Part shown: piece after piece, positions 5,126 through 29,441 of the stretch
How positions within the stretch are numbered: the first letter of the stretch is position 1
Layout of the letters: each line of letters opens with the position of its first letter
Source of the DNA: a virus
Taxonomy: Duplodnaviria; Heunggongvirae; Uroviricota; Caudoviricetes
Virus record (IMG/VR): IMGVR_UViG_2740892426_000003
Reading direction: 5' to 3' (one strand)
Length of the DNA stretch: 34,274 nt
Position numbers and translations under genes: made by a program
Notes under the pieces: model-generated
Seen by the model: only the letters and a program-made list of their open reading frames with translations
The model's database searches: none
Told to the model about the DNA's origin: nothing

Positions 5126-5461
5126 ATGAAAGAATTTGGCATCCGTTTGAAGGAAGAACGTATCCGACTTGGACTTGATCAAGACGGCTTTGGACAACTT
5201 GGGGGCGTGAAGAAAAACGCACAAAGCAACTATGAGAATGGGTTGCGCAAGCCGGACAGTGACTATCTTGCTGGCATAGCGGCAGCGGGAGTTGATGTTC
5301 TGTATGTTCTAACAGGCAACCGCACGCCTGTGGTTACGTTGTCCAGTAAAGAGAGTGTGTTGGTGGAAAACTATCGTTCTGCTACGCCAGAACACCAGTC
5401 CACCCTTGACACGGTTAGCGCTGCGCTTGCGCAACCGATGAATTGTCGAAAAGTACAATGA
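5126..5461 (+). CDS. XRE-family helix-turn-helix transcriptional regulator (possible prophage repressor)
   Basis: 111-aa ORF; N-terminal GIRLKEERIRLGLDQDGFGQLGGVKKNAQSNYENGLRKPDSDYLAGIAAAGVDVLYVLTG is a Cro/C1-type HTH. First gene of a three-gene plus-strand operon. Confidence 0.75.
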   Translation: MKEFGIRLKEERIRLGLDQDGFGQLGGVKKNAQSNYENGLRKPDSDYLAGIAAAGVDVLYVLTGNRTPVVTLSSKESVLVENYRSATPEHQSTLDTVSAALAQPMNCRKVQ

Positions 5462-5491
5462 TTTATTAAATTCAGCTTATTAGGAGTAATT

Positions 5492-6580
5492 ATGGCAAAT
5501 GTCGGCTTTTCTTTTGAGGGGGTGATGATTGAAAGAATTATTGCTCATCGAATCTTCCCAAGGTCTCCCGATAAGCAAATGGTTCCACCTAAGTTAAGTA
5601 ATCAGTTAATAACGTTAGAACAAGATGCTTTGGATGCACTACAGGTTCGTATAACAGAAGCCTTAGGTAATAAATCTCATGGCATTGAAATGTCTATCAC
5701 TGATACCGGTGATGATAGTTTTTTTGCACTGACAACGTCTGTACTACATGTTGAAGGCGAATCATTTATTAACGTATCTAAGCGATTGGCGCATAAGTTA
5801 ACAGAAGCTCAATATAGTGCGGGGAAGGTTTCCGGTGGTGTGTTAGTAATCATTACGGGAAAAATTGGTGAACAAGCCTGCCCATTCTTTGCTGTACTGC
5901 GTGCTGAAATGCAAAACGGATTTCGGACCAATGATACCCCAGAGAAAATAGCGATGGAGTATATTGCTGACTTATTACTTACACCAACTCAGCGGCTTTA
6001 TAAAATAGGAGTGTTGATTGAGTGTGAGTCAGGCCATGAATTGATTGATGGTCGTTGTGATACGCAATATTATCGTTCATTTTTATTTGATCACTTGATG
6101 ACATCGACGGAAACTAAAAATGCTGCGGGGTATTTTTACAGTGTTTTTCTTGGAATGGGGATCGAAAAATCCTCCAAGAAATTGACGCAGGATTTTTTTG
6201 AACATACTCGAAATTTCATTAATCAGGCTCCAGTTGATGAGGAAACTAAGTTTGATTTACACGAGTCATTACGTTCTGAACTGAGAAGTCAGAAAGCAAC
6301 TTTGAGTACCGCTTCGTTTGCTACGGAACATCTTCCTCAAGAATTACAGACGAGCTATCAGTCATTTATGGCTCAAAAAGGTTTTCCGCAGAATGCAGTG
6401 TCTAAAGATACTGATTATATTAAGAAAAAGCTTCGTCGTAGAAGTAAATTAGTGTTTACAAGCGATGTATGGATATCCATACCACCAGATCAAGTAAAAG
6501 AACTGGTACAGATTGAACAAACAGATGATGATGAGTCAACTACACTTAAAGTCAAAGGGCGGTTGAAAAGTCAAGAATGA
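5492..6580 (+). CDS. NA37/YejK (NdpA)-like nucleoid-associated-protein-family protein; candidate DNA-binding sensor or antitoxin component
   Basis: 362-aa ORF with RBS TAGGAG upstream. By-eye similarity to E. coli YejK recalled from memory: I..H.I near the N-terminus, a GG-hydrophobic stretch (SGGVLVIITG), FLGMG...DFF, and C-terminal F..KG...TL.VKG. Very AT-rich relative to flanking phage genes. Stop overlaps the next start (ATGA). Confidence 0.55.
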   Translation: MANVGFSFEGVMIERIIAHRIFPRSPDKQMVPPKLSNQLITLEQDALDALQVRITEALGNKSHGIEMSITDTGDDSFFALTTSVLHVEGESFINVSKRLAHKLTEAQYSAGKVSGGVLVIITGKIGEQACPFFAVLRAEMQNGFRTNDTPEKIAMEYIADLLLTPTQRLYKIGVLIECESGHELIDGRCDTQYYRSFLFDHLMTSTETKNAAGYFYSVFLGMGIEKSSKKLTQDFFEHTRNFINQAPVDEETKFDLHESLRSELRSQKATLSTASFATEHLPQELQTSYQSFMAQKGFPQNAVSKDTDYIKKKLRRRSKLVFTSDVWISIPPDQVKELVQIEQTDDDESTTLKVKGRLKSQE

Positions 6581-7578
6581 TGAGTATAGAGGATTTTAGA
6601 CGTTATCTGGTTGAAAACCATGCTGCTTATGAAGCATGGGGTAAACATATTGCGTCTGAAATCAATGCGGCTTTGATTGAACAACTTGGTGAAGGGGCCG
6701 CCCAGCTCTTCATCAAGGTACCACCCACTCCGAGAGTTAAAGGTATCGAGTCCGCATTAGGGAAGGTTGGTCGTAAAGGTTATAACAACCCTGTTCAGCA
6801 GATGACGGATCTCGTTGGCGTTCGTTTTGTCGTTTTACTTTCTGAAGATATTGAGACAATCTGTAAAATCATTCAGAATAATGAACAATGGATAGCTGTT
6901 GTTTCTAAAGATTATCAGGATGAAATAGAGGTAAACCCTAAACTATTTGATTATCAATCAAAGCATTTTGAAATAAGGCCAAAGATAAATAGCGTTATAT
7001 CGGGAGTTAATATTACAACTGATATGTGCTGTGAAGTACAAATTAGAACATTATTGCAGCATGCGTATGCAGAATTAGTTCATGATAGCGTTTATAAACC
7101 TGTTGGCCCCGTACCGAAAAAAGCGGAGCGCCAAATTGCGCGTAGTATGGCTTTGATGGAAACAACAGATGAATTATTTTGTAATACAATGCGGCTTTTA
7201 TGTGATACTAATAAACCAAGAAATGATTTTTTAAAGGAGTTAAAAGATTTTTATATAAATAAAATTGGGAGGCAGTATTTAAATCAGGAAGATAAAATAA
7301 ATTATTGTTTTTTAGATGAGTATAGGTCGTTTATACAAGAAGATCTTTTGACTAATCTAATCGACCTTCTTGATAAGAAAAAATATATATCATATAAAAT
7401 CCAACAAAGGGCTACTGCCAATCTTTTTTTTGCGCAGCCAGTGGTCATTTTTACTTACTGGCTGGCAATAAATGAAGACAGTAATAAATTACAGCAAGAA
7501 TGGCCGTTACCTGGATATTTGAACGAATTGAGAATGATTTTAAGTGATGTTGGTGTAAGTAGCGGTATTGGATATTAA
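6577..7578 (+). CDS. RelA/SpoT-homologue nucleotidyltransferase (small-alarmone-synthetase/toxSAS-like) with ~150-aa C-terminal extension
   Basis: 333-aa ORF. Synthetase-domain motifs are visible: PRVKGIESALGKVGRKG, TDLVGVRFVV, and CEVQIRTLLQHAYAE (the E-[IV]-Q-I-R-T...H...AE signature). C-terminal third is K/N-rich, AT-rich and unassigned. Translationally coupled to the upstream gene. Confidence 0.8.
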   Translation: MMSIEDFRRYLVENHAAYEAWGKHIASEINAALIEQLGEGAAQLFIKVPPTPRVKGIESALGKVGRKGYNNPVQQMTDLVGVRFVVLLSEDIETICKIIQNNEQWIAVVSKDYQDEIEVNPKLFDYQSKHFEIRPKINSVISGVNITTDMCCEVQIRTLLQHAYAELVHDSVYKPVGPVPKKAERQIARSMALMETTDELFCNTMRLLCDTNKPRNDFLKELKDFYINKIGRQYLNQEDKINYCFLDEYRSFIQEDLLTNLIDLLDKKKYISYKIQQRATANLFFAQPVVIFTYWLAINEDSNKLQQEWPLPGYLNELRMILSDVGVSSGIGY

Positions 7579-14169: not shown

Positions 14170-14192
14170 CTTGTAACCACTGGCACTACAAG
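14170..14192 (-). promoter_or_regulatory. late-promoter activator site (CTTGTA-N11-TACAAG dyad) upstream of FI
   Basis: Dyad centred about 80 bp upstream of the FI start, just downstream of dam. Confidence 0.6.
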
Positions 14193-14204: not shown

Positions 14205-14963
14205 TTAATTCAGGATAATCAATTCTGATGTGGTGCTGGCTGGCTTTCCACCTACAGTATAGCGAATCCCTACCGTTGAAAATGTCAGGCCGTGGAAGAT
14301 ATCGCGCATTTCCGGGATGTCATTAACCGAGATAATCATCCGGCCCTGCATGGTGCGCGCCAGCTCTGCCATACGCTGGTACTGCTCAAGGCCAAATGGT
14401 ACGCCGTAGCCTTCGGTTTTCCAGTATGGCGGGTCGCAGTAGAACAGGGTATGCGGGCGGTCATAGCGGCGAATACAGTCGACCCAGTCCAGATTTTCAA
14501 TACAGACGCGCGCCAGCCGCAGATGGGCGGCGGATAAATCCTCTTCCATACGCAGCAGGTTCAGGCGCGGCGGTGAGGTGGTGGCGGTACCGAACGTGCG
14601 GCTTTCCACCTTACCGCCGAATGCCAGCTTTTGCAGATAGTAGAAGCGCGCCGCGCGCTGGATGTCGGTCAGCGTTTCTTCCGGGGTGATCTGGAGCCAG
14701 CGGTACATTTCGCGACTGACCAGCGACCATTTAAACTGGCGGACAAACTCTTCTAAATGGTGCTGGAGTACGCGGTAGAGGTTGGTAACGTCACCATTGA
14801 TATCGTTCAGCACCTCGGCCTGAGCGGGCTGTTTCATAAAGAACAACGCCGCCGCCCCGCAGAACGGTTCAACGTAGCAGCGGTGTTTGGGAAACAGCGG
14901 CAGAATGTGTTTTGCCAGCCTGCGCTTACCGCCGATCCACGGAATAATGGGTAACGTATTCAT
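14205..14963 (-). CDS. dam: Dam-family N6-adenine DNA methyltransferase (orphan, inside the late tail-fibre operon)
   Basis: 252-aa ORF with SAM-binding FCGAAALF and catalytic DPPY (YCDPPYW). Sits between G and FI, the position of Z/fun in P2. Confidence 0.85.
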   Translation of the reverse strand: MNTLPIIPWIGGKRRLAKHILPLFPKHRCYVEPFCGAAALFFMKQPAQAEVLNDINGDVTNLYRVLQHHLEEFVRQFKWSLVSREMYRWLQITPEETLTDIQRAARFYYLQKLAFGGKVESRTFGTATTSPPRLNLLRMEEDLSAAHLRLARVCIENLDWVDCIRRYDRPHTLFYCDPPYWKTEGYGVPFGLEQYQRMAELARTMQGRMIISVNDIPEMRDIFHGLTFSTVGIRYTVGGKPASTTSELIILN

Positions 14964-15427
14964 ATTGTCAATTTTCCAGATCGACTGCAGACCAGCGCAT
15001 ACAGCAGATTAGGTGAATAACGCCAGCTATCACGCAGATGCAGAAATTCGGCGCAGAACTCGCTGCAAAACAGGCGCTCCTGCTTGCCCTGACTGAGTAA
15101 CACAAAACCAATGGCACCCAGCCAGTCGTAACCTTTATCGTCGTGCTGACGAAAAAAGGTCTCCAGTGTCAGCGGATCGGCGTTGATCGGGAGTAAATCC
15201 CATTTCTCAATCGGCAGCGGCATTCTCTTGCTGCGCACGCCTTTATCCCGTACCGATGATGAGTAACAGATAAACAGGCCATCCGGCAGGCGTTCGACCA
15301 GTTCACAGTGAGAGTAAGGGCCGCGCGTGACCTGTCGCGTCAACCAGTCGGAGAGCCGTGCAAGGCTGAAAAAGCGTTCAGCCCGGCCACGGTAGAACGC
15401 CGCGTAAACCTGACTCATGGTTGCCAC
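14960..15427 (-). CDS. hypothetical 155-aa protein with conserved His/Cys motifs (possible permuted papain-like hydrolase), cargo at the G-FI locus
   Basis: Overlaps the G stop and dam start, so co-transcribed with the tail-fibre operon. YSHCELV and LFCSEFCAEF motifs; no firm family assignment. Confidence 0.6.
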   Translation of the reverse strand: MATMSQVYAAFYRGRAERFFSLARLSDWLTRQVTRGPYSHCELVERLPDGLFICYSSSVRDKGVRSKRMPLPIEKWDLLPINADPLTLETFFRQHDDKGYDWLGAIGFVLLSQGKQERLFCSEFCAEFLHLRDSWRYSPNLLYALVCSRSGKLTI

Positions 15428-19517: not shown

Positions 19518-19864
19518 GGACGTCTCCTGTCGATCGGAATGGAGAATGCCCACGGCTGCCCGGGGATATCGGTACGTTCGGCTTCAATAGTGACGCTGAG
19601 ATCGGCATTTTCCGCAGCAAAGTCCACGCCGATAATCTCGAGGCGGGGTTCCCAGCGCGTCAGCGCCATAACCACCGCCGACATCACCCGCAGCCGGGTG
19701 CCGCCATCGTTGGGCTGGTCGATCAGGTTGCCGATCAGTGAGCCATAATCGCGACGCATCACGCGCGTACCTACCGGCGTGGCCAGAATATCTTTTACGG
19801 ATTGCTTAATGTGCAACTCATCGCTTAATGCTCTGCCGGTTTCGGCGTTCATACCGAGGTACAT
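19514..19864 (-). CDS. W: baseplate protein W (gp25-like wedge subunit)
   Basis: 116-aa ORF between V and J. Confidence 0.85.
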   Translation of the reverse strand: MYLGMNAETGRALSDELHIKQSVKDILATPVGTRVMRRDYGSLIGNLIDQPNDGGTRLRVMSAVVMALTRWEPRLEIIGVDFAAENADLSVTIEAERTDIPGQPWAFSIPIDRRRP

Positions 19865-20463
19865 TACTGCGGCCCTCCGGTATTGCTACCGCCGCGCTCT
19901 ACGCCTGTGTGCGTGTGGGTATGGACGGTGACGCCGTTGGAGGTAAAACTGCCGCTGCTGTGGGTGTAAGTGCCTTTAAGCGTGCCGCCTTTTTTAACCG
20001 ACAGCGTGGCGGTTTCCAGATGCTGGGTGCAGACGACGAGCGGTGTATCCAGCGTGACGCGGGTGTTGGCTTCGACCAGTGCGGTCTTGATGCCGGTGGC
20101 TTTTAACGCGCTGGAGCGCGGATCATATTCAATCACCGCACCATCGGGGTAAACGCTATGGTGAACCTGTTCATCCAGCAGCGGGGCGGGGTTGGCGTCA
20201 GAGTAAATGGCAGGAAGCGCCACGGCGGTGGTTAACTCACCGCTTAAACAGAGCAGTAACACCTGTTCGCCTGTTGATGGTCGCCACCACGTCCGGGCAT
20301 CACCGGCGCGCAGCGTCAGCCACGGTATCCAGTTGGTGGTCAGTTCACCAGTGTGAATGCGTACTCGATCGCCCTTCACCTCTTCAACGGTGCCGGTACG
20401 GATCAGGTTTTCAATGCGCCGGTGCAGCTCGGCGAGGTTGGCTGGGTGGTTTGCGTCGCTCAT
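19864..20463 (-). CDS. V: baseplate spike/hub protein V
   Basis: 199-aa ORF; C-terminal HTHTHTG metal-binding repeat typical of spike tips; first gene of the V-W-J-I-H-G operon. Confidence 0.85.
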   Translation of the reverse strand: MSDANHPANLAELHRRIENLIRTGTVEEVKGDRVRIHTGELTTNWIPWLTLRAGDARTWWRPSTGEQVLLLCLSGELTTAVALPAIYSDANPAPLLDEQVHHSVYPDGAVIEYDPRSSALKATGIKTALVEANTRVTLDTPLVVCTQHLETATLSVKKGGTLKGTYTHSSGSFTSNGVTVHTHTHTGVERGGSNTGGPQ

Positions 20464-20507
20464 GCCGGAATCATTGGGATTCGCGGGCGAAGAGGGAAGG
20501 GCTAAGG

Positions 20508-20530
20508 CTTGTAGGATAATGGGCTACAAG
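20508..20530 (-). promoter_or_regulatory. late-promoter activator site (CTTGTA-N11-TACAAG dyad) upstream of V
   Basis: Perfect hexamer inverted repeat with 11-bp spacer; same element found upstream of FI, X and in the O/P divergent region. Confidence 0.6.
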
Positions 20531-20533
20531 TAA

Positions 20534-20555
20534 AACGCCCCTGAGTAGGGGCGTT
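20534..20555 (-). terminator. rho-independent terminator downstream of hicB
   Basis: 8-bp GC-rich stem (ACGCCCCT/AGGGGCGT) with 4-nt loop, followed on the minus strand by UUUUAC. Confidence 0.6.
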
Positions 20556-20569
20556 GAACGAAAAAGAGC

Positions 20570-20905
20570 TTAACCGTGCGCAGCCTTCATCAGTGTATCG
20601 TTAATCCACTGGTTAACGCTTTTACCGGAGACTTCTGCCGCAACGTTAATGGCAGAGTGAATTTCAGGTGGAATACGCAGGCTGATTTTTCCGCTGGCCG
20701 GACGCAACGGCTCCCGGCCCCGTTCCTCGCAGTAAGCCAGATAGTCGTCTACCGCCTCTTCAAACGCTTTACGCAGATCGGCAACATTATCGGCATGAAA
20801 GCCAATGACATCCCGAATGCCTGCAACGTGACCAACAATGCATTGATCTTCATCGCTGTATTCAATTTTTGCGGCATAGCCTCTATATGTCATGGTATTC
20901 ATCAT
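20570..20905 (-). CDS. hicB: HicB-family antitoxin (RNase-H-like N-domain + C-terminal RHH)
   Basis: 111-aa ORF; YRGYAAKIEYSDEDQCIVGHVAGI...DLRKAFEEAVDDYLAYCEERGREPLRP is a HicB pattern; C-terminal ISLRIPPEIHSAINVAA is RHH-like. Confidence 0.8.
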   Translation of the reverse strand: MMNTMTYRGYAAKIEYSDEDQCIVGHVAGIRDVIGFHADNVADLRKAFEEAVDDYLAYCEERGREPLRPASGKISLRIPPEIHSAINVAAEVSGKSVNQWINDTLMKAAHG

Positions 20906-21165
20906 GGTGTTACCCCTACAGCTTCAAGGAATGTTCTGGCATCGCGAACCTGATAGGCTTTCGCTTCTTTTTCCGGGTGTGGACGATGAAATGAAGCCAC
21001 AACCTGATTAATTTCAAACCTGACGCGGGAACCGTTTCCTTCCGTAGCAATAGCCCCCAAAGCAATAAATAAGGCTTCTATTTTTCGCCATTCCAGCGTG
21101 ACAGGTGTTGGCGTAGAAAAAACAGCTTGTAAGGTTTTTTTATGTTTGGCGCTTAACGTATTCAT
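20902..21165 (-). CDS. hicA: HicA-family toxin (putative mRNA interferase)
   Basis: 87-aa ORF overlapping the hicB start; GNGSRVRFE...FHRPHPEKEAKAYQVRDARTFLEAVG resembles HicA/YcfA, with Arg where the usual GSH histidine sits. Confidence 0.65.
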   Translation of the reverse strand: MNTLSAKHKKTLQAVFSTPTPVTLEWRKIEALFIALGAIATEGNGSRVRFEINQVVASFHRPHPEKEAKAYQVRDARTFLEAVGVTP

Positions 21166-21213
21166 ACAGGGTATTTTCCATAAGTTATTTTATTCTTCCG
21201 CCAAGATATAATG

Positions 21214-21236
21214 ATGATATCATTTTTTGATATCAT
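21214..21236 (-). promoter_or_regulatory. tandem palindromic operator-like sites (TGATATCA x2) in the hicAB promoter region
   Basis: Two copies of the palindrome TGATATCA, 13 bp centre to centre, between the S stop and the hicA start. Confidence 0.5.
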
Positions 21237-21237
21237 T

Positions 21238-21684
21238 TCAAGTCAGGAAGTGAACGATTAGCGCCTCTATTTTTCGCACATCCTCCGCCGAAAACCCCAG
21301 CAACTGCCTTTGTGCGTAATCCACCTCCAACCCGTAGCGATTTACCCGATCGCGCAGGCCATACTGATGAACGGCAGCCATATGTCGAACGCTGCTGAGA
21401 AACGAAATGGTTGCTCCCTGCCCATCGCCTTTCCCTTTCATATAGCGTGCGGTACGCAGCTTACGGAACATCTGGCGGCGGATCTTTCCTTTTTTACTGC
21501 GTAGCTGGAGCTTACGGGGGGCGAACGGTGAGCCGTCCGGGTTTTTCTGCGCGGTTATTCGCTGGCTTTGCGACTGGCGCAGGCTGCGGGCGATTTCCCG
21601 TGCCAGTTGGGTTCGGCTTGCCGGGGAGAGCTTTGCGAGCAGGCCATCGGCCCAGCGGTGGAGTTGTTGCAGGTCGTCGCTCAT
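21238..21684 (-). CDS. S: tail completion protein S
   Basis: 148-aa ORF downstream of R, P2 order. Confidence 0.85.
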   Translation of the reverse strand: MSDDLQQLHRWADGLLAKLSPASRTQLAREIARSLRQSQSQRITAQKNPDGSPFAPRKLQLRSKKGKIRRQMFRKLRTARYMKGKGDGQGATISFLSSVRHMAAVHQYGLRDRVNRYGLEVDYAQRQLLGFSAEDVRKIEALIVHFLT

Positions 21685-22142
21685 CAGGTGCTCACAATCG
21701 TTTCACCGCGACAGGCGATTTCCCAGCCGTTGTAACCGCTTTCTGGCTGCTGGTCGTTACAGTGCTTTGCTTCCAGACTACCGTCGCGCTGGCGAACAAT
21801 GACGCGCTCGGTCAGCGCCAGTTTGATGCTGATATCGTAGCTCTGATGGTCGATGGCTTCGGCCTCAAACTGAAACGCCTGCTCGCGCAGGTCGCTATTG
21901 GCGAAGGCTTCCTGCTGGTGAAGCGACATCCAGCCGACCAGCGGCACCATCAGTGTATCGGGATCGGCGGCGTAGTCGGTGATCAACAGTTCCAGCGTGT
22001 ACTGGTATTCAAAACTGGTGCTGCGCCCTGCGGTGGCGACGATCCGGCCCTTATTGATAAAGACCCGCAGCGTGTCCGGGTTCTGCTGTAGATGCGGGAC
22101 GCTGGCGGCCAGCAGTTCACGGATGAGCTGCGCTTTGTGCAT
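21684..22142 (-). CDS. R: tail completion protein R
   Basis: 152-aa ORF following the lysis cassette, P2 order. Confidence 0.8.
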   Translation of the reverse strand: MHKAQLIRELLAASVPHLQQNPDTLRVFINKGRIVATAGRSTSFEYQYTLELLITDYAADPDTLMVPLVGWMSLHQQEAFANSDLREQAFQFEAEAIDHQSYDISIKLALTERVIVRQRDGSLEAKHCNDQQPESGYNGWEIACRGETIVST

Positions 22143-24218: not shown

Positions 24219-24241
24219 CTTGTAACTGAGGGCAGTACAAG
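24219..24241 (-). promoter_or_regulatory. late-promoter activator site (CTTGTA-N11-TACAAG dyad, extended to a 13-bp inverted repeat) upstream of X
   Basis: GCTTCCGCTTGTA...TACAAGCGGAAGC, centred about 84 bp upstream of the X start. Confidence 0.6.
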
Positions 24242-24260: not shown

Positions 24261-24581
24261 CTATGCCTCGTCGCTGTCGGTATTGATGATTTTCAGTTCA
24301 GCGGACTTCTGGAGCTGGATCAGCGCCGGAAGCAGAAGCGCGGTAGCCGACAGGCCATGCCCTAGCTGGCACAGGCTTTCAGCGGAGAATTCCAGCACGT
24401 TGCTGTCGGCAAAGGAGACGAAGGTTTTACCCAGAAAATGCAGGCCGTGACATAGTCCGGCGTAGCACTCTTCGCTGCTGTTGGCCAGTAGCAGAGTATC
24501 GTCGGCGTTCAGGTGTGAAATATCCATCTTGCGGATCGCGTCCGCCAGTTCAGAGGACAGAATATTGGTTTCAGGCACCAT
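24261..24581 (-). CDS. hypothetical protein (106 aa)
   Basis: ORF in GC-rich backbone-like DNA; overlaps the upstream 68-aa ORF by 11 nt; no motif recognised. Confidence 0.4.
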   Translation of the reverse strand: MVPETNILSSELADAIRKMDISHLNADDTLLLANSSEECYAGLCHGLHFLGKTFVSFADSNVLEFSAESLCQLGHGLSATALLLPALIQLQKSAELKIINTDSDEA

Positions 24582-24777
24582 GGCGCACCTCCAGCGGTTT
24601 GCAGGAGACGAACACCAGCGGGAAACCCGCCAGCAGGTCGCGAGCCTCGATTTCAGTTGTTGCCAGTACAGACACCAGACGCAGGGGCTGGATCTCGCGC
24701 AGCAGGCGGTTGGAACGGGCGTTCAGGAAGGTGTAGAGCTTTGAATGTGCGCGTATGTTACTATTAGCGGTAGCCAT
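24571..24777 (-). CDS. hypothetical protein (68 aa)
   Basis: Small ORF upstream of and overlapping the 106-aa ORF; the pair could be one frameshifted gene. Confidence 0.35.
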   Translation of the reverse strand: MATANSNIRAHSKLYTFLNARSNRLLREIQPLRLVSVLATTEIEARDLLAGFPLVFVSCKPLEVRHGA

Positions 24778-24866
24778 AGCATTAGCCTCTTTAATGTTGT
24801 GGTCAGAGGCCCGTCGGTGTTGGTAGCACCTGCGGGCTTCGTTCGTTTAAGGGTTGCAAAACATCA

Positions 24867-24918
24867 CGTAATTGCGATGTAATTACAACTACATCATTCT
24901 AAGGATTTTGTAATTACA
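24867..24918 (+). promoter_or_regulatory. operator-like palindromes (2 x TGTAATTACA plus a CGTAATTGCG half-match) upstream of the RHH gene
   Basis: Perfect 10-bp palindromes at about 24878-24887 and 24909-24918, 31 bp centre to centre; the second abuts the ATG. Confidence 0.55.
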
Positions 24919-25089
24919 ATGTCAAGTGAAAAGGCTAAAACAGATCAGTACCAACTTCGTCTTGCTCATGAATTTAGAAAGCAGCTTGAAGAACAGGCTC
25001 GTAAAGATGGAGATACCTCTCTCGCAACATGGATAAAACGCGTTTTGCGTAAGGAACTTCAGTCACGAGGTATTGAACCCAAAGGATAA
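24919..25089 (+). CDS. Arc/MetJ-type ribbon-helix-helix DNA-binding protein (56 aa; below the ORF-track size cutoff)
   Basis: Hand translation MSSEKAKTDQYQLRLAHEFRKQLEEQARKDGDTSLATWIKRVLRKELQSRGIEPKG; the strand-then-two-helices pattern resembles Arc repressor. Confidence 0.65.
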   Translation: MSSEKAKTDQYQLRLAHEFRKQLEEQARKDGDTSLATWIKRVLRKELQSRGIEPKG

Positions 25090-25190
25090 TTACGGAGATA
25101 TCAAGCAGCGCTAAGAAGTTAGGATTATTTGTTCAGCCCAGATTAGTCGATATGCACTGATTAACTTAAACATTGTGTGTAGGAGGTGTT

Positions 25191-25844
25191 GTGGATATTG
25201 AATTTTTTCTTAAAGAGCGCACAAGATTCGTTACTTATTTCTATGAAACGGCTGCTGCACCATTTGTTAACATCATGAATGATATTGAGAATGAAGTGGA
25301 ACCTTATATTCAGCCGTATGGTGAGAGTGATGAACCAGCTTTTTTAGATGAATGGTTAGATGCAAAGTCGGGATTAGAAACCTGTGGGCACCATGCATTA
25401 TCGATGCTTTCGTCTTCTCTTCAGTTGTACCTGAAGGCGTGGGTAGATCGCTTAGGATATCATAGCGTGAAATCTGATATAAATTTCAAGAAGGGTTGGT
25501 TTAATGGCTATCGTGAAATTTTCAACAAAATTGAGTTGGAAATGGCAAAATGTCCTGCAAATTTGGAAATAATTGAACAAATTCCCTTGGTGAGAAATCG
25601 TGTCCAGCATCCTGAGGAACTTACCTCAATTAATATTTCTCACTCAAAAAATGACTTGGAAAAATATCCTCGCCCATACTTTATTCAGGAGTGTGAGCTA
25701 CTTTTGGCTTCCGAACAGGAAGAAAAATCGTGGTTATTCCCACCTACAATATCCCCGACTAAAGAGAAAATATTCGAAGCTATCAGAAATGTTGAAATGC
25801 TGTGCTCTTGGTTAGAGTCTGAGTATTGGTCGGCTCTTGACTAA
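25191..25844 (+). CDS. hypothetical 217-aa protein, AT-rich orphan cargo (candidate effector or toxin partner of the upstream RHH)
   Basis: Start set at GTG 4 nt after a consensus AGGAGG (ORF track begins at TTG 25173). Markedly AT-rich versus the flanking head and lysis genes; no motif recognised. Confidence 0.65.
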   Translation: MDIEFFLKERTRFVTYFYETAAAPFVNIMNDIENEVEPYIQPYGESDEPAFLDEWLDAKSGLETCGHHALSMLSSSLQLYLKAWVDRLGYHSVKSDINFKKGWFNGYREIFNKIELEMAKCPANLEIIEQIPLVRNRVQHPEELTSINISHSKNDLEKYPRPYFIQECELLLASEQEEKSWLFPPTISPTKEKIFEAIRNVEMLCSWLESEYWSALD

Positions 25845-25879
25845 ATGTAGAATAGAGTAAGTCAGCGTCAAATGAAAAC

Positions 25880-25897
25880 AGCCCGACGAATCGGGCT
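25880..25897. terminator. hairpin terminator between convergent cargo genes
   Basis: 7-bp stem AGCCCGA/TCGGGCT with CGAA loop; T-rich on the minus-strand side, A/T-rich on both sides. Confidence 0.45.
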
Positions 25898-25933
25898 ATT
25901 ATGGCTATCAGGCAAACACTACCTTCAAACTCA

Positions 25934-26170
25934 TTATGCCGCCTCAATACCCGCTCTGGTTAACATATAGTGGCCCCAGTGGGTTTTCTTCAGATAACCG
26001 GCCAGTTCCATCTGTGTCACAATAAATTCAGCGTTAACTATTTCTATATCTGCGTAGTCGGCCAGATCGCGCAGCGGCCATGTGCTGCGAACGCCGACGC
26101 TAACTATGGTATCTCTGATGCGGCGAGCGGTATCGGTCATTGGGCGGGTTCTGGCTGCCTGAATAGTCAT
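25934..26170 (-). CDS. hypothetical small protein, possible winged-helix DNA-binding protein
   Basis: Start set at ATG (MTIQAARTRP...) preceded by GGGGA; immediately downstream of L. Confidence 0.45.
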   Translation of the reverse strand: MTIQAARTRPMTDTARRIRDTIVSVGVRSTWPLRDLADYADIEIVNAEFIVTQMELAGYLKKTHWGHYMLTRAGIEAA

Positions 26171-26285
26171 GGTATTTTCCCCTGTAAGTTCTTTCGTTGG
26201 GTCAGACACTAACTCTGGTGGGGAAGGGGCATCCAGCGTTCAGATGAGGCGATACGGTGATGCGCATCGCATATCCGTACTCTTT

Positions 26286-29418: not shown

Positions 29419-29441
29419 CTTGTAATCATCCGGGTTACAAG
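29419..29441. promoter_or_regulatory. late-promoter activator site (CTTGTA-N11-TACAAG dyad) in the O/P divergent region
   Basis: Same dyad as upstream of FI, V and X, centred 72-84 bp from the O and P starts. Confidence 0.55.

Follow-up and report, generated by a model that had tools for sequence, protein, structure and literature searches.

Two small genes separate the tail completion gene S from the baseplate spike gene V in the 34,274-nucleotide viral record IMGVR_UViG_2740892426_000003 (this whole stretch of DNA is called the window below). Do they belong to the phage or are they foreign cargo, and what would they do for the prophage that carries them? We read the pair as hicA and hicB, a horizontally acquired and self-contained type II toxin-antitoxin (TA) cassette lodged in the S/V cargo slot, the place of orf30 in phage P2, of an Escherichia coli P2-like prophage, and put the probability of this reading at roughly 0.75. 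About the identity of the pair as a hicAB cassette and its status as a moron we have very little doubt.

The pair between S and V

The minus strand carries every gene of the R-S-hicA-hicB-V region. Gene R (21684-22142, with a Pfam match to P2 GpR) is followed by S (21238-21684; Pfam Phage_tail_S, 2.8e-37), which forms the upstream backbone boundary, and the cassette extends from the S stop codon to the late-promoter dyad of V, beyond which V itself (19864-20463; Pfam Phage_spike, Phage_base_V and Apex) opens the next late operon. Within these limits hicA (20902-21165) encodes 87 residues and hicB (20570-20905) encodes 111, the hicB start overlapping the hicA stop by 4 nt (ATGA) in an arrangement that would fit translational coupling, as expected. 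A preliminary description of this DNA had placed a hicA-hicB pair here, and the family profiles agree: HicA matches Pfam HicA_toxin (PF07927; 33.5 bits against a cutoff of 27, E=4.7e-8, residues 26-75) and HicB matches PF05534 (E=2.7e-18), both above the gathering cutoffs. RefSeq names the identical E. coli proteins HicA family toxin and HicB family antitoxin, and the exact HicA sequence is recorded on 591 contigs, with the order S-hicA-hicB-V in all nine of the contexts displayed. We discounted a 125-residue open reading frame (ORF) antisense to hicB (20576-20953, plus strand), which is probably no more than a shadow of the conserved hicB.

The GC content of the cassette (0.41-0.50) is below that of its flanks (0.57-0.62), which points to an acquired origin. 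Comparison of relatives bears directly on whether the pair is cargo or backbone. Among 5,426 complete E. coli genomes, megablast with R-S-hicAB-V turned up four related prophages, of which one has an identical cassette, two carry AbiTii (301 residues; Pfam 2.2e-39, PADLOC 1e-42) and one carries PD-Lambda-3_A (151 residues; PADLOC 1.3e-38); cargo in the S-V gap of sister prophages lies at L002:2225-3130 and L003:2171-2626, and in L015, L017 and L018. Using the S protein as query (HicA served as bait for none of the slot counts), we recovered five close viral contigs: one with the same hicAB, one with a hicAB that is ∼13% diverged, one with AbiTii and two with other TA pairs, namely a Gp49/HigB-like toxin with its antidote and a RelE-like toxin with a helix-turn-helix (HTH) partner. 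Only three of the nine close relatives (1/4 E. coli prophages, 2/5 viral contigs) thus have hicAB at S/V, which rules it out as lineage backbone, and the other six hold different cargo, as the earlier assignment of moron status would have it. Alignment of the four prophages loses homology ∼12 codons before the S stop codon and regains it exactly at the V dyad. These last ∼12 codons of S (window ∼21238-21275) vary with the cargo, so that the upstream breakpoint of cargo exchange falls within the 3' part of S, whose C-terminus travels with the cassette.

Further afield, the S search reached more distant contigs with an aerolysin-family toxin and insertion sequence (IS) remnants, small ORFs without assignment and one empty junction. 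In L022 and L023 the S-V gap (∼2.8-3.4 kb) is taken up by this aerolysin-family toxin, a pore-forming protein (Pfam 7e-68), and by remains of transposase genes; this cargo is a virulence-type moron, not a defence gene. A scan based on V found 62 P2-like contigs with both S and V, in which the junction is empty (≤175 bp) in 30 and holds 0.4-3.9 kb of cargo in 32. The 50 cargo ORFs of these distant contigs fall into 42 clusters, nearly all below the GC of the flanks, and their families include AAA_15/AAA_21 ATPases (AriA/PtuA models), DUF4435, an EcoO109I restriction enzyme with a C5 methylase, DUF4238, HEPN, ParE, and Gp49 with its antidote.

The preliminary description had supposed that R, S and V are contiguous in P2, which is incorrect, as the nonessential orf30 sits between S and V there. 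Indeed, the orf30, TO and Z regions are common sites of foreign genes in P2-like phages (PMC3091744; further example in PMC6823313). The P2 locus occupies the identical slot, from the end of S to the activator site of the V promoter (PV), and it too holds low-GC cargo, although that cargo is a single 261-residue membrane-type ORF without assigned function on the opposite strand, whereas the window has a co-oriented two-gene TA module. As AbiTii, PD-Lambda-3, HigBA/RelE-type TA pairs, PARIS/Septu-like ATPases, restriction-modification genes and DUF4238 share this junction, our comparison suggests that P2-like phages have in the S/V slot one more hotspot for defence and TA genes, in addition to gpA-gpQ and Z/fun, which are usually mined. 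Where the main papers deal with defence hotspots of P2, the emphasis is on gpA-gpQ, Z/fun and the region downstream of gpL, with 'within the tail genes' touched on in passing (PMC9122126, PMC9519451, PMC13586616); the S/V slot is not singled out in them.

The same module is also found away from phages. With each species represented by a single genome, a profile scan gave at least 590 HicA relatives, and we studied the best 80 of these loci (L026-L105), in which HicA identity is 57-76% and which come from Enterobacterales, Pseudomonas, Chloroflexi, Poribacteria, Armatimonadetes and Deferribacteres. A cognate HicB lies directly 3' of hicA in 80/80 loci, and S or V neighbours flank hicAB in 0/80. 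The closest relative, from Enterobacter, is chromosomal and adjoins dusA (the sole context examined in detail). With no S/V neighbours at any of the 80 loci and a copy in the chromosome, the module is best seen as independently mobile and captured by this prophage lineage. HicB identity across the 80 loci is 42-88%, so that, with HicA at 57-76%, the two proteins vary much less than is usual in a TA module; the conservation of hicAB and of its operator DNA points to strong constraint or to frequent recent transfer. As for the prophage itself, near and distant DNA searches of the phage collection gave no match, nor did a search of the plasmid collection; deposited phage genomes do not include this lineage, which is seen only in prophage form.

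A toxin clade with arginine in place of histidine

The AlphaFold2 (AF2) model of HicA has a mean predicted local distance difference test (pLDDT) score of 90.7 and consists of a helix (residues 26-35), three strands (39-42, 47-52 and 55-60) and a second helix (70-82), preceded by an extra N-terminal helix (6-16). The top Foldseek matches are all HicA chains: 6g26_E, 6hpb_A and 1whz (from Burkholderia pseudomallei, E. coli and Thermus thermophilus, respectively) and 4p78_C. The best structural matches are B. pseudomallei HicAB (6G26, 4C26; probability 1.0 for 6g26_E) and E. coli K-12 HicAB (6HPB; target-normalised TM-score of 0.74 for 6hpb_A), with which the GS and PHP motifs align. Identity to these proteins is 14-20%, and they differ from the window HicA in lacking its N-terminal helix and in having a catalytic histidine (His24 and His23, respectively) at the place of its arginine. 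NCBIfam gave no HicA match, searches of PDB sequences with HicA alone and with the clade profile returned only chance matches to CBP/p300, and comparison of the clade profile with E. coli HicA by hhalign gave a probability of 1.8%. Because the sequence searches came up empty, kinship to the solved HicAs rests on the Pfam match, the MAFFT alignment and the fold.

In that alignment, made with reference sequences of B. pseudomallei HicA and Yersinia pestis HicA3 confirmed against the PDB, Arg47 of the window protein falls on the catalytic His24 and His28 of these two toxins, and its RPHP segment on the VPHP/LPYP of the reference HicAs. The histidine is needed by all HicAs characterised so far (PMC11594946, PMC12297915). 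The preliminary description had observed the arginine correctly, and had called the activity of the protein uncertain on that account; as evidence of a decayed copy, the arginine does not stand. Position 47 is arginine in 199 of 201 clade sequences and histidine in none (0/201), and 20 diverse homologues all keep the segments GSRVRF and FHRPHPxKEAKxYQV unchanged, a degree of conservation across the clade that rules out Arg47 as the mark of a decayed toxin. For the wider clade we searched 1.84 billion representatives with a profile, filters off, and obtained 1,933 matches at E ≤ 1e-3; in the 150 best representatives position 47 is R in 124, A in 10, S in 6, K in 2 and G in 2. Two histidines are kept in the same set with the window protein added, His60 in 144/151 and His63 in 141/151. 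We used this representative set for the two residues instead of the 80 genome loci, where their invariance is partly built in through the scan bait, FHRPHPxKE.

The strands formed by residues 47-52 and 55-60 make a hairpin in the AF2 model, in whose register residues 47 and 60 would be cross-strand neighbours. We read HicA as a member of a distinct GSR clade whose catalytic histidine may lie on the neighbouring strand, and His60 would be the best candidate for the catalytic residue. A different reading of the same residues is that HicA binds RNA or regulates without catalysis, or is a toxin that has been disabled, and that the pair is a regulator duo rather than a TA module. Arginine at a position where every characterised HicA depends on histidine would agree with this, as would the tolerance of Ala or Ser there in the wider clade, but the near-invariance of GSRVRF and FHRPHPxKEAKxYQV, the strict coupling to HicB in all 80 loci and the conserved, predicted autorepressing operators, of a kind typical of restraint on a harmful product, speak against it, and the pairing of His60 with position 47 across the β2-β3 hairpin, with His63 near, would offer a seat for the catalytic histidine on the neighbouring strand. 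We consider a regulator duo improbable, and lean clearly towards HicA being a functional toxin.

The antitoxin appears to combine two domains. The C-terminus of HicB (residues 73-110) matches TacA1 (24.1 bits against a cutoff of 21) and, weakly, Arc, and the best sequence in a phmmer search of the PDB is the Arc repressor; a Pfam match to UPF0150 is below the cutoff. The AF2 model (pLDDT 70.9) contains four strands and a long helix, then a low-confidence linker and ribbon and two helices (80-92 and 97-110) after the segment KISLRI, and its best Foldseek matches, 2yzt and 6u0i_B (putative HicB3), are HicB-like and weak (E = 0.14-0.53). The model would thus give HicB an N-terminal domain of β-sheet and helix, perhaps of the partial RNase H-like fold, and a C-terminal ribbon-helix-helix (RHH) domain. 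The Pfam match and the signs of an RHH domain agree with an assignment of the pair to Gerdes class 4, defined as hicAB with an RHH-type HicB (PMC10865869). The HicB of E. coli K-12 differs in having an HTH domain. Y. pestis HicA3-HicB3 (PDB 4P78, also class 4) is likewise a toxin-first operon; its HicB carries a HicA-binding domain at the N-terminus and an RHH domain at the C-terminus, the arrangement predicted for the window HicB, and its toxin supplies the Foldseek match 4p78_C. The two systems differ in that HicA3 has His28 where the window protein has Arg47, in that hicA3 and hicB3 are 174 bp apart and the genes here overlap, and in that the PDB search detected no sequence similarity between them.

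Predicted promoter, operators and terminator

A promoter scan places a sigma-70-like promoter at 21214-21241 on the minus strand, with 10/12 consensus positions and a TG extension. Its -35 hexamer, TTGAAA (21241-21236), overlaps the S stop codon TGA (21240-21238) and is followed by a 16-nt spacer and an extended -10 element, TGnTATCAT (21222-21214). Homologous hicAB cassettes show the same layout. The two palindromes that had been reported upstream of hicA are present, both with the sequence TGATATCA: one (21228-21235) stands directly 3' of the -35 hexamer, the other (21215-21222) overlaps the TG extension and the -10 hexamer, and their centres are 13 bp apart. The sequence TGATATCA occurs twice in the window, both times here, against an expected 0.27. 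A count of two was reached in 4/100 shuffles, and the 21-nt dual site in 0/100.

The site recurs with the module. By a strict pattern, the dual motif G[AC]TA[TG]CA-N6-G[AC]TATCA, with its 13-bp period, stands 5' of hicA in 29/80 homologous loci and in 0/1,527 control segments taken from the same loci. Its second copy provides the TATCAT -10 element, and motif variants are found at other loci. This recurrence 5' of hicA is the reason for regarding the palindromes as a predicted HicB operator, and is the strongest support available for that assignment; judged from these patterns, autoregulation through the palindromes seems distinctly likely. In Y. pestis, hicA3B3 has one upstream promoter, and HicB3 binds two inverted-repeat operators, the main one over the -10 element (PMC11594946). 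The cassette resembles it in having predicted dual operators at the promoter, one of them overlapping the -10 element, and differs in having 8-bp palindromes 13 bp apart where Y. pestis has 15-bp repeats. In 16 of 23 loci with a strict dual operator, the TATCAT element ends only 6-8 nt 5' of the hicA ATG, with a good -35 element 17 nt upstream. With the -10 element so close to the start codon, most members of the hicAB clade are probably transcribed as leaderless mRNAs. An enterobacterial subgroup that includes the window has a 45-48-nt leader, without a good Shine-Dalgarno sequence.

At the other end, the strong hairpin predicted downstream of hicB was recovered by both a terminator scan and RNA folding. 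This intrinsic-terminator hairpin (20534-20555, minus strand) has a 9-bp stem with 6 GC pairs, a folding energy of -17.3 kcal/mol (z = -3.98) and a short U-tract, UUUUAC; in the four-prophage alignment it is absent from the sister cargos. Directly after it comes the V late-promoter activator dyad (TTGT-N13-ACAA, 20509-20529), intact as previously described, which forms the downstream backbone boundary and has its centre 56 nt 5' of the V ATG. In its extended form the dyad reads CTTGTAG-N9-CTACAAG. The activator site of P2 PV lies at the same distance from the V start and has the form TTGT-N11-ACAA, so the two dyads are analogous, not identical; N13 in place of N11 implies a late activator with slightly different half-site spacing. 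Dyads of the form TTGTA[AG]-N9-[CT]TACAA occur four times in the window (14171-14191, 20509-20529, 24220-24240 and 29420-29440) against 0.33 expected, a count reached in 0/100 shuffles. The first three stand 5' of the sheath gene, V and the X-lysis-R-S block, respectively, and the fourth falls in the gap that parts the capsid genes from the divergently oriented terminase genes. All four are places where a P2-type phage should have a late promoter, and the dyads appear to mark the late promoters of this phage.

The dyad at 24220-24240 (TTGT-N13-ACAA) would serve the X-holin-lysis-R-S operon. A scan of 20300-21500 found no terminator between S and hicA, and for this reason late transcription started at the 24220 dyad probably continues across hicAB as far as the cassette terminator, which would then also end the upstream late X-to-S transcript. 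Such read-through raises the possibility that hicAB is part of the phage late programme, tuning host RNA or lysis timing for example. The genes are co-oriented with S, the scanned stretch from S to hicA lacks a terminator and the cassette terminator is placed where the late operon must end, all of which would suit a late gene. Against this, most close relatives are without hicAB or have unrelated cargo, about half of the distant P2-like junctions are empty, and the cassette has its own sigma-70 promoter and operators, in common with cassettes that have no S/V neighbours. We regard a late-programme role as very improbable.

Defence or persistence as possible roles

How might a captive cassette of this kind act? 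In the mechanism that we propose, a HicB tetramer with two RHH dimers would bind both palindromes and autorepress the promoter, so that the lysogen would express the pair constitutively at a low level and without need of the late activator. HicA would be masked by the N-terminal domain of HicB. Were labile HicB no longer replenished, free HicA, an RNase-type protein of the double-stranded RNA-binding domain fold, would arrest translation. During lytic growth hicAB would probably also be read through from the X-to-S late operon.

The payoff for the lysogen can be argued in more than one way. Protection against other phages by abortive infection is the most likely role because sister slots hold AbiTii and PD-Lambda-3 and those of wider relatives many defence families; even so we propose it tentatively, at somewhat less than even odds. 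A defence role for HicA has been put forward before on contextual grounds (PMC10865869). Almost as probable is retention of the prophage, which could go together with abortive infection, or mere persistence of a selfish element. Taken to its extreme, this second view becomes the proposal of a purely selfish addiction module without anti-phage benefit, kept because a cell that loses the prophage or the cassette is killed or arrested, and placed here only because a junction of two late operons tolerates insertions. It would explain the classical TA architecture with its predicted autoregulation, the occurrence of hicAB as a free-standing module in other genomes (chromosomal in the copy examined) and the lack of a PADLOC match, and a maintenance role has indeed been proposed for hicAB of prophage islands (PMC12297915). 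Yet the slot is enriched in defence genes, with AbiTii and PD-Lambda-3_A in sister prophages and further families in distant P2-like phages, which suggests selection for defence cargo. Chromosomal TA modules, moreover, often stabilise little. We hold pure addiction to be rather unlikely, though it deserves to be kept in mind.

Other prophages also carry hicAB. The loci of Neisseria gonorrhoeae NgoPhi3, Pseudomonas aeruginosa PA1 and mycobacteriophage Adephagia (gp90/gp91) are likewise accessory cargo, for which prophage maintenance or anti-phage defence has been proposed (PMC12297915, PMC11594946). These systems differ from the cassette described here in keeping the canonical catalytic histidine (His24, His31), and a P2-type S/V slot is not reported for them.

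Several points weigh against our reading of the cassette as an active, autoregulated TA module with a defensive payoff. The canonical catalytic histidine at the start of β2 (GSH motif) is absent, its place taken by Arg47, and the clade has no member among solved structures, as far as sequence search can detect, nor in the list of characterised HicAs in PMC11594946; that HicA is toxic and cleaves RNA is an assumption. The HicB model is of moderate confidence and its fold matches are weak. The promoter is a consensus match only, as is the terminator, with its short U-tract. With regard to defence, HicAB is not an established defence system, PADLOC matched neither HicA nor HicB, and the defence genes found as slot-mates amount to guilt by association. 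If the reading holds nonetheless, a more speculative and on present evidence doubtful extension is that GSR-type HicAs (84-87 residues) form a mechanistically distinct branch, in which the catalytic histidine has moved to His60 at the end of β3 or RNA is targeted in another way, and that the module acts as an abortive-infection defence in the S/V hotspot.

The window has other accessory regions besides this one. Near the replication end, 5126-7578 (plus strand) encodes an HTH protein of 111 residues, an NA37/NdpA-like nucleoid-associated protein of 362 residues and a RelA_SpoT-domain protein of 333 residues, the last with a PADLOC match to PDC-S33 (1e-13), and this cluster may be a toxin or defence candidate of the alarmone-synthetase type. 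A D12-class N6-adenine DNA methyltransferase (PADLOC MTase_II, 1e-114) and a 155-residue ORF without family match lie at 14205-15427 (minus strand), in a stretch that runs from the tail-fibre assembly genes to the sheath late promoter and corresponds to the Z/fun position of P2. Between the capsid-completion gene L and the tail gene X, 24581-26209 is a variable region with a 223-residue ORF on the opposite strand, for which there was no Pfam or PADLOC match; in some sister prophages a Fic-domain protein is found there (L005:1331-1893), and the region matches the hotspot 'downstream of GpL' (PMC13586616). One sister prophage has an IS200/IS605-family element (TnpB/OrfB_IS605 with a Y1 transposase) in its lysB region (L012:2883-4543).

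As a feature of a prophage the cassette is ordinary: TA cassettes are common morons, the orf30 slot is documented and RefSeq already names both proteins. Its wider interest is limited to the defence-rich S/V slot in which it sits and to the variant active site of its toxin clade. For the latter it provides an accessible E. coli representative of a large, conserved HicA clade without the histidine deemed essential in the HicAs studied.

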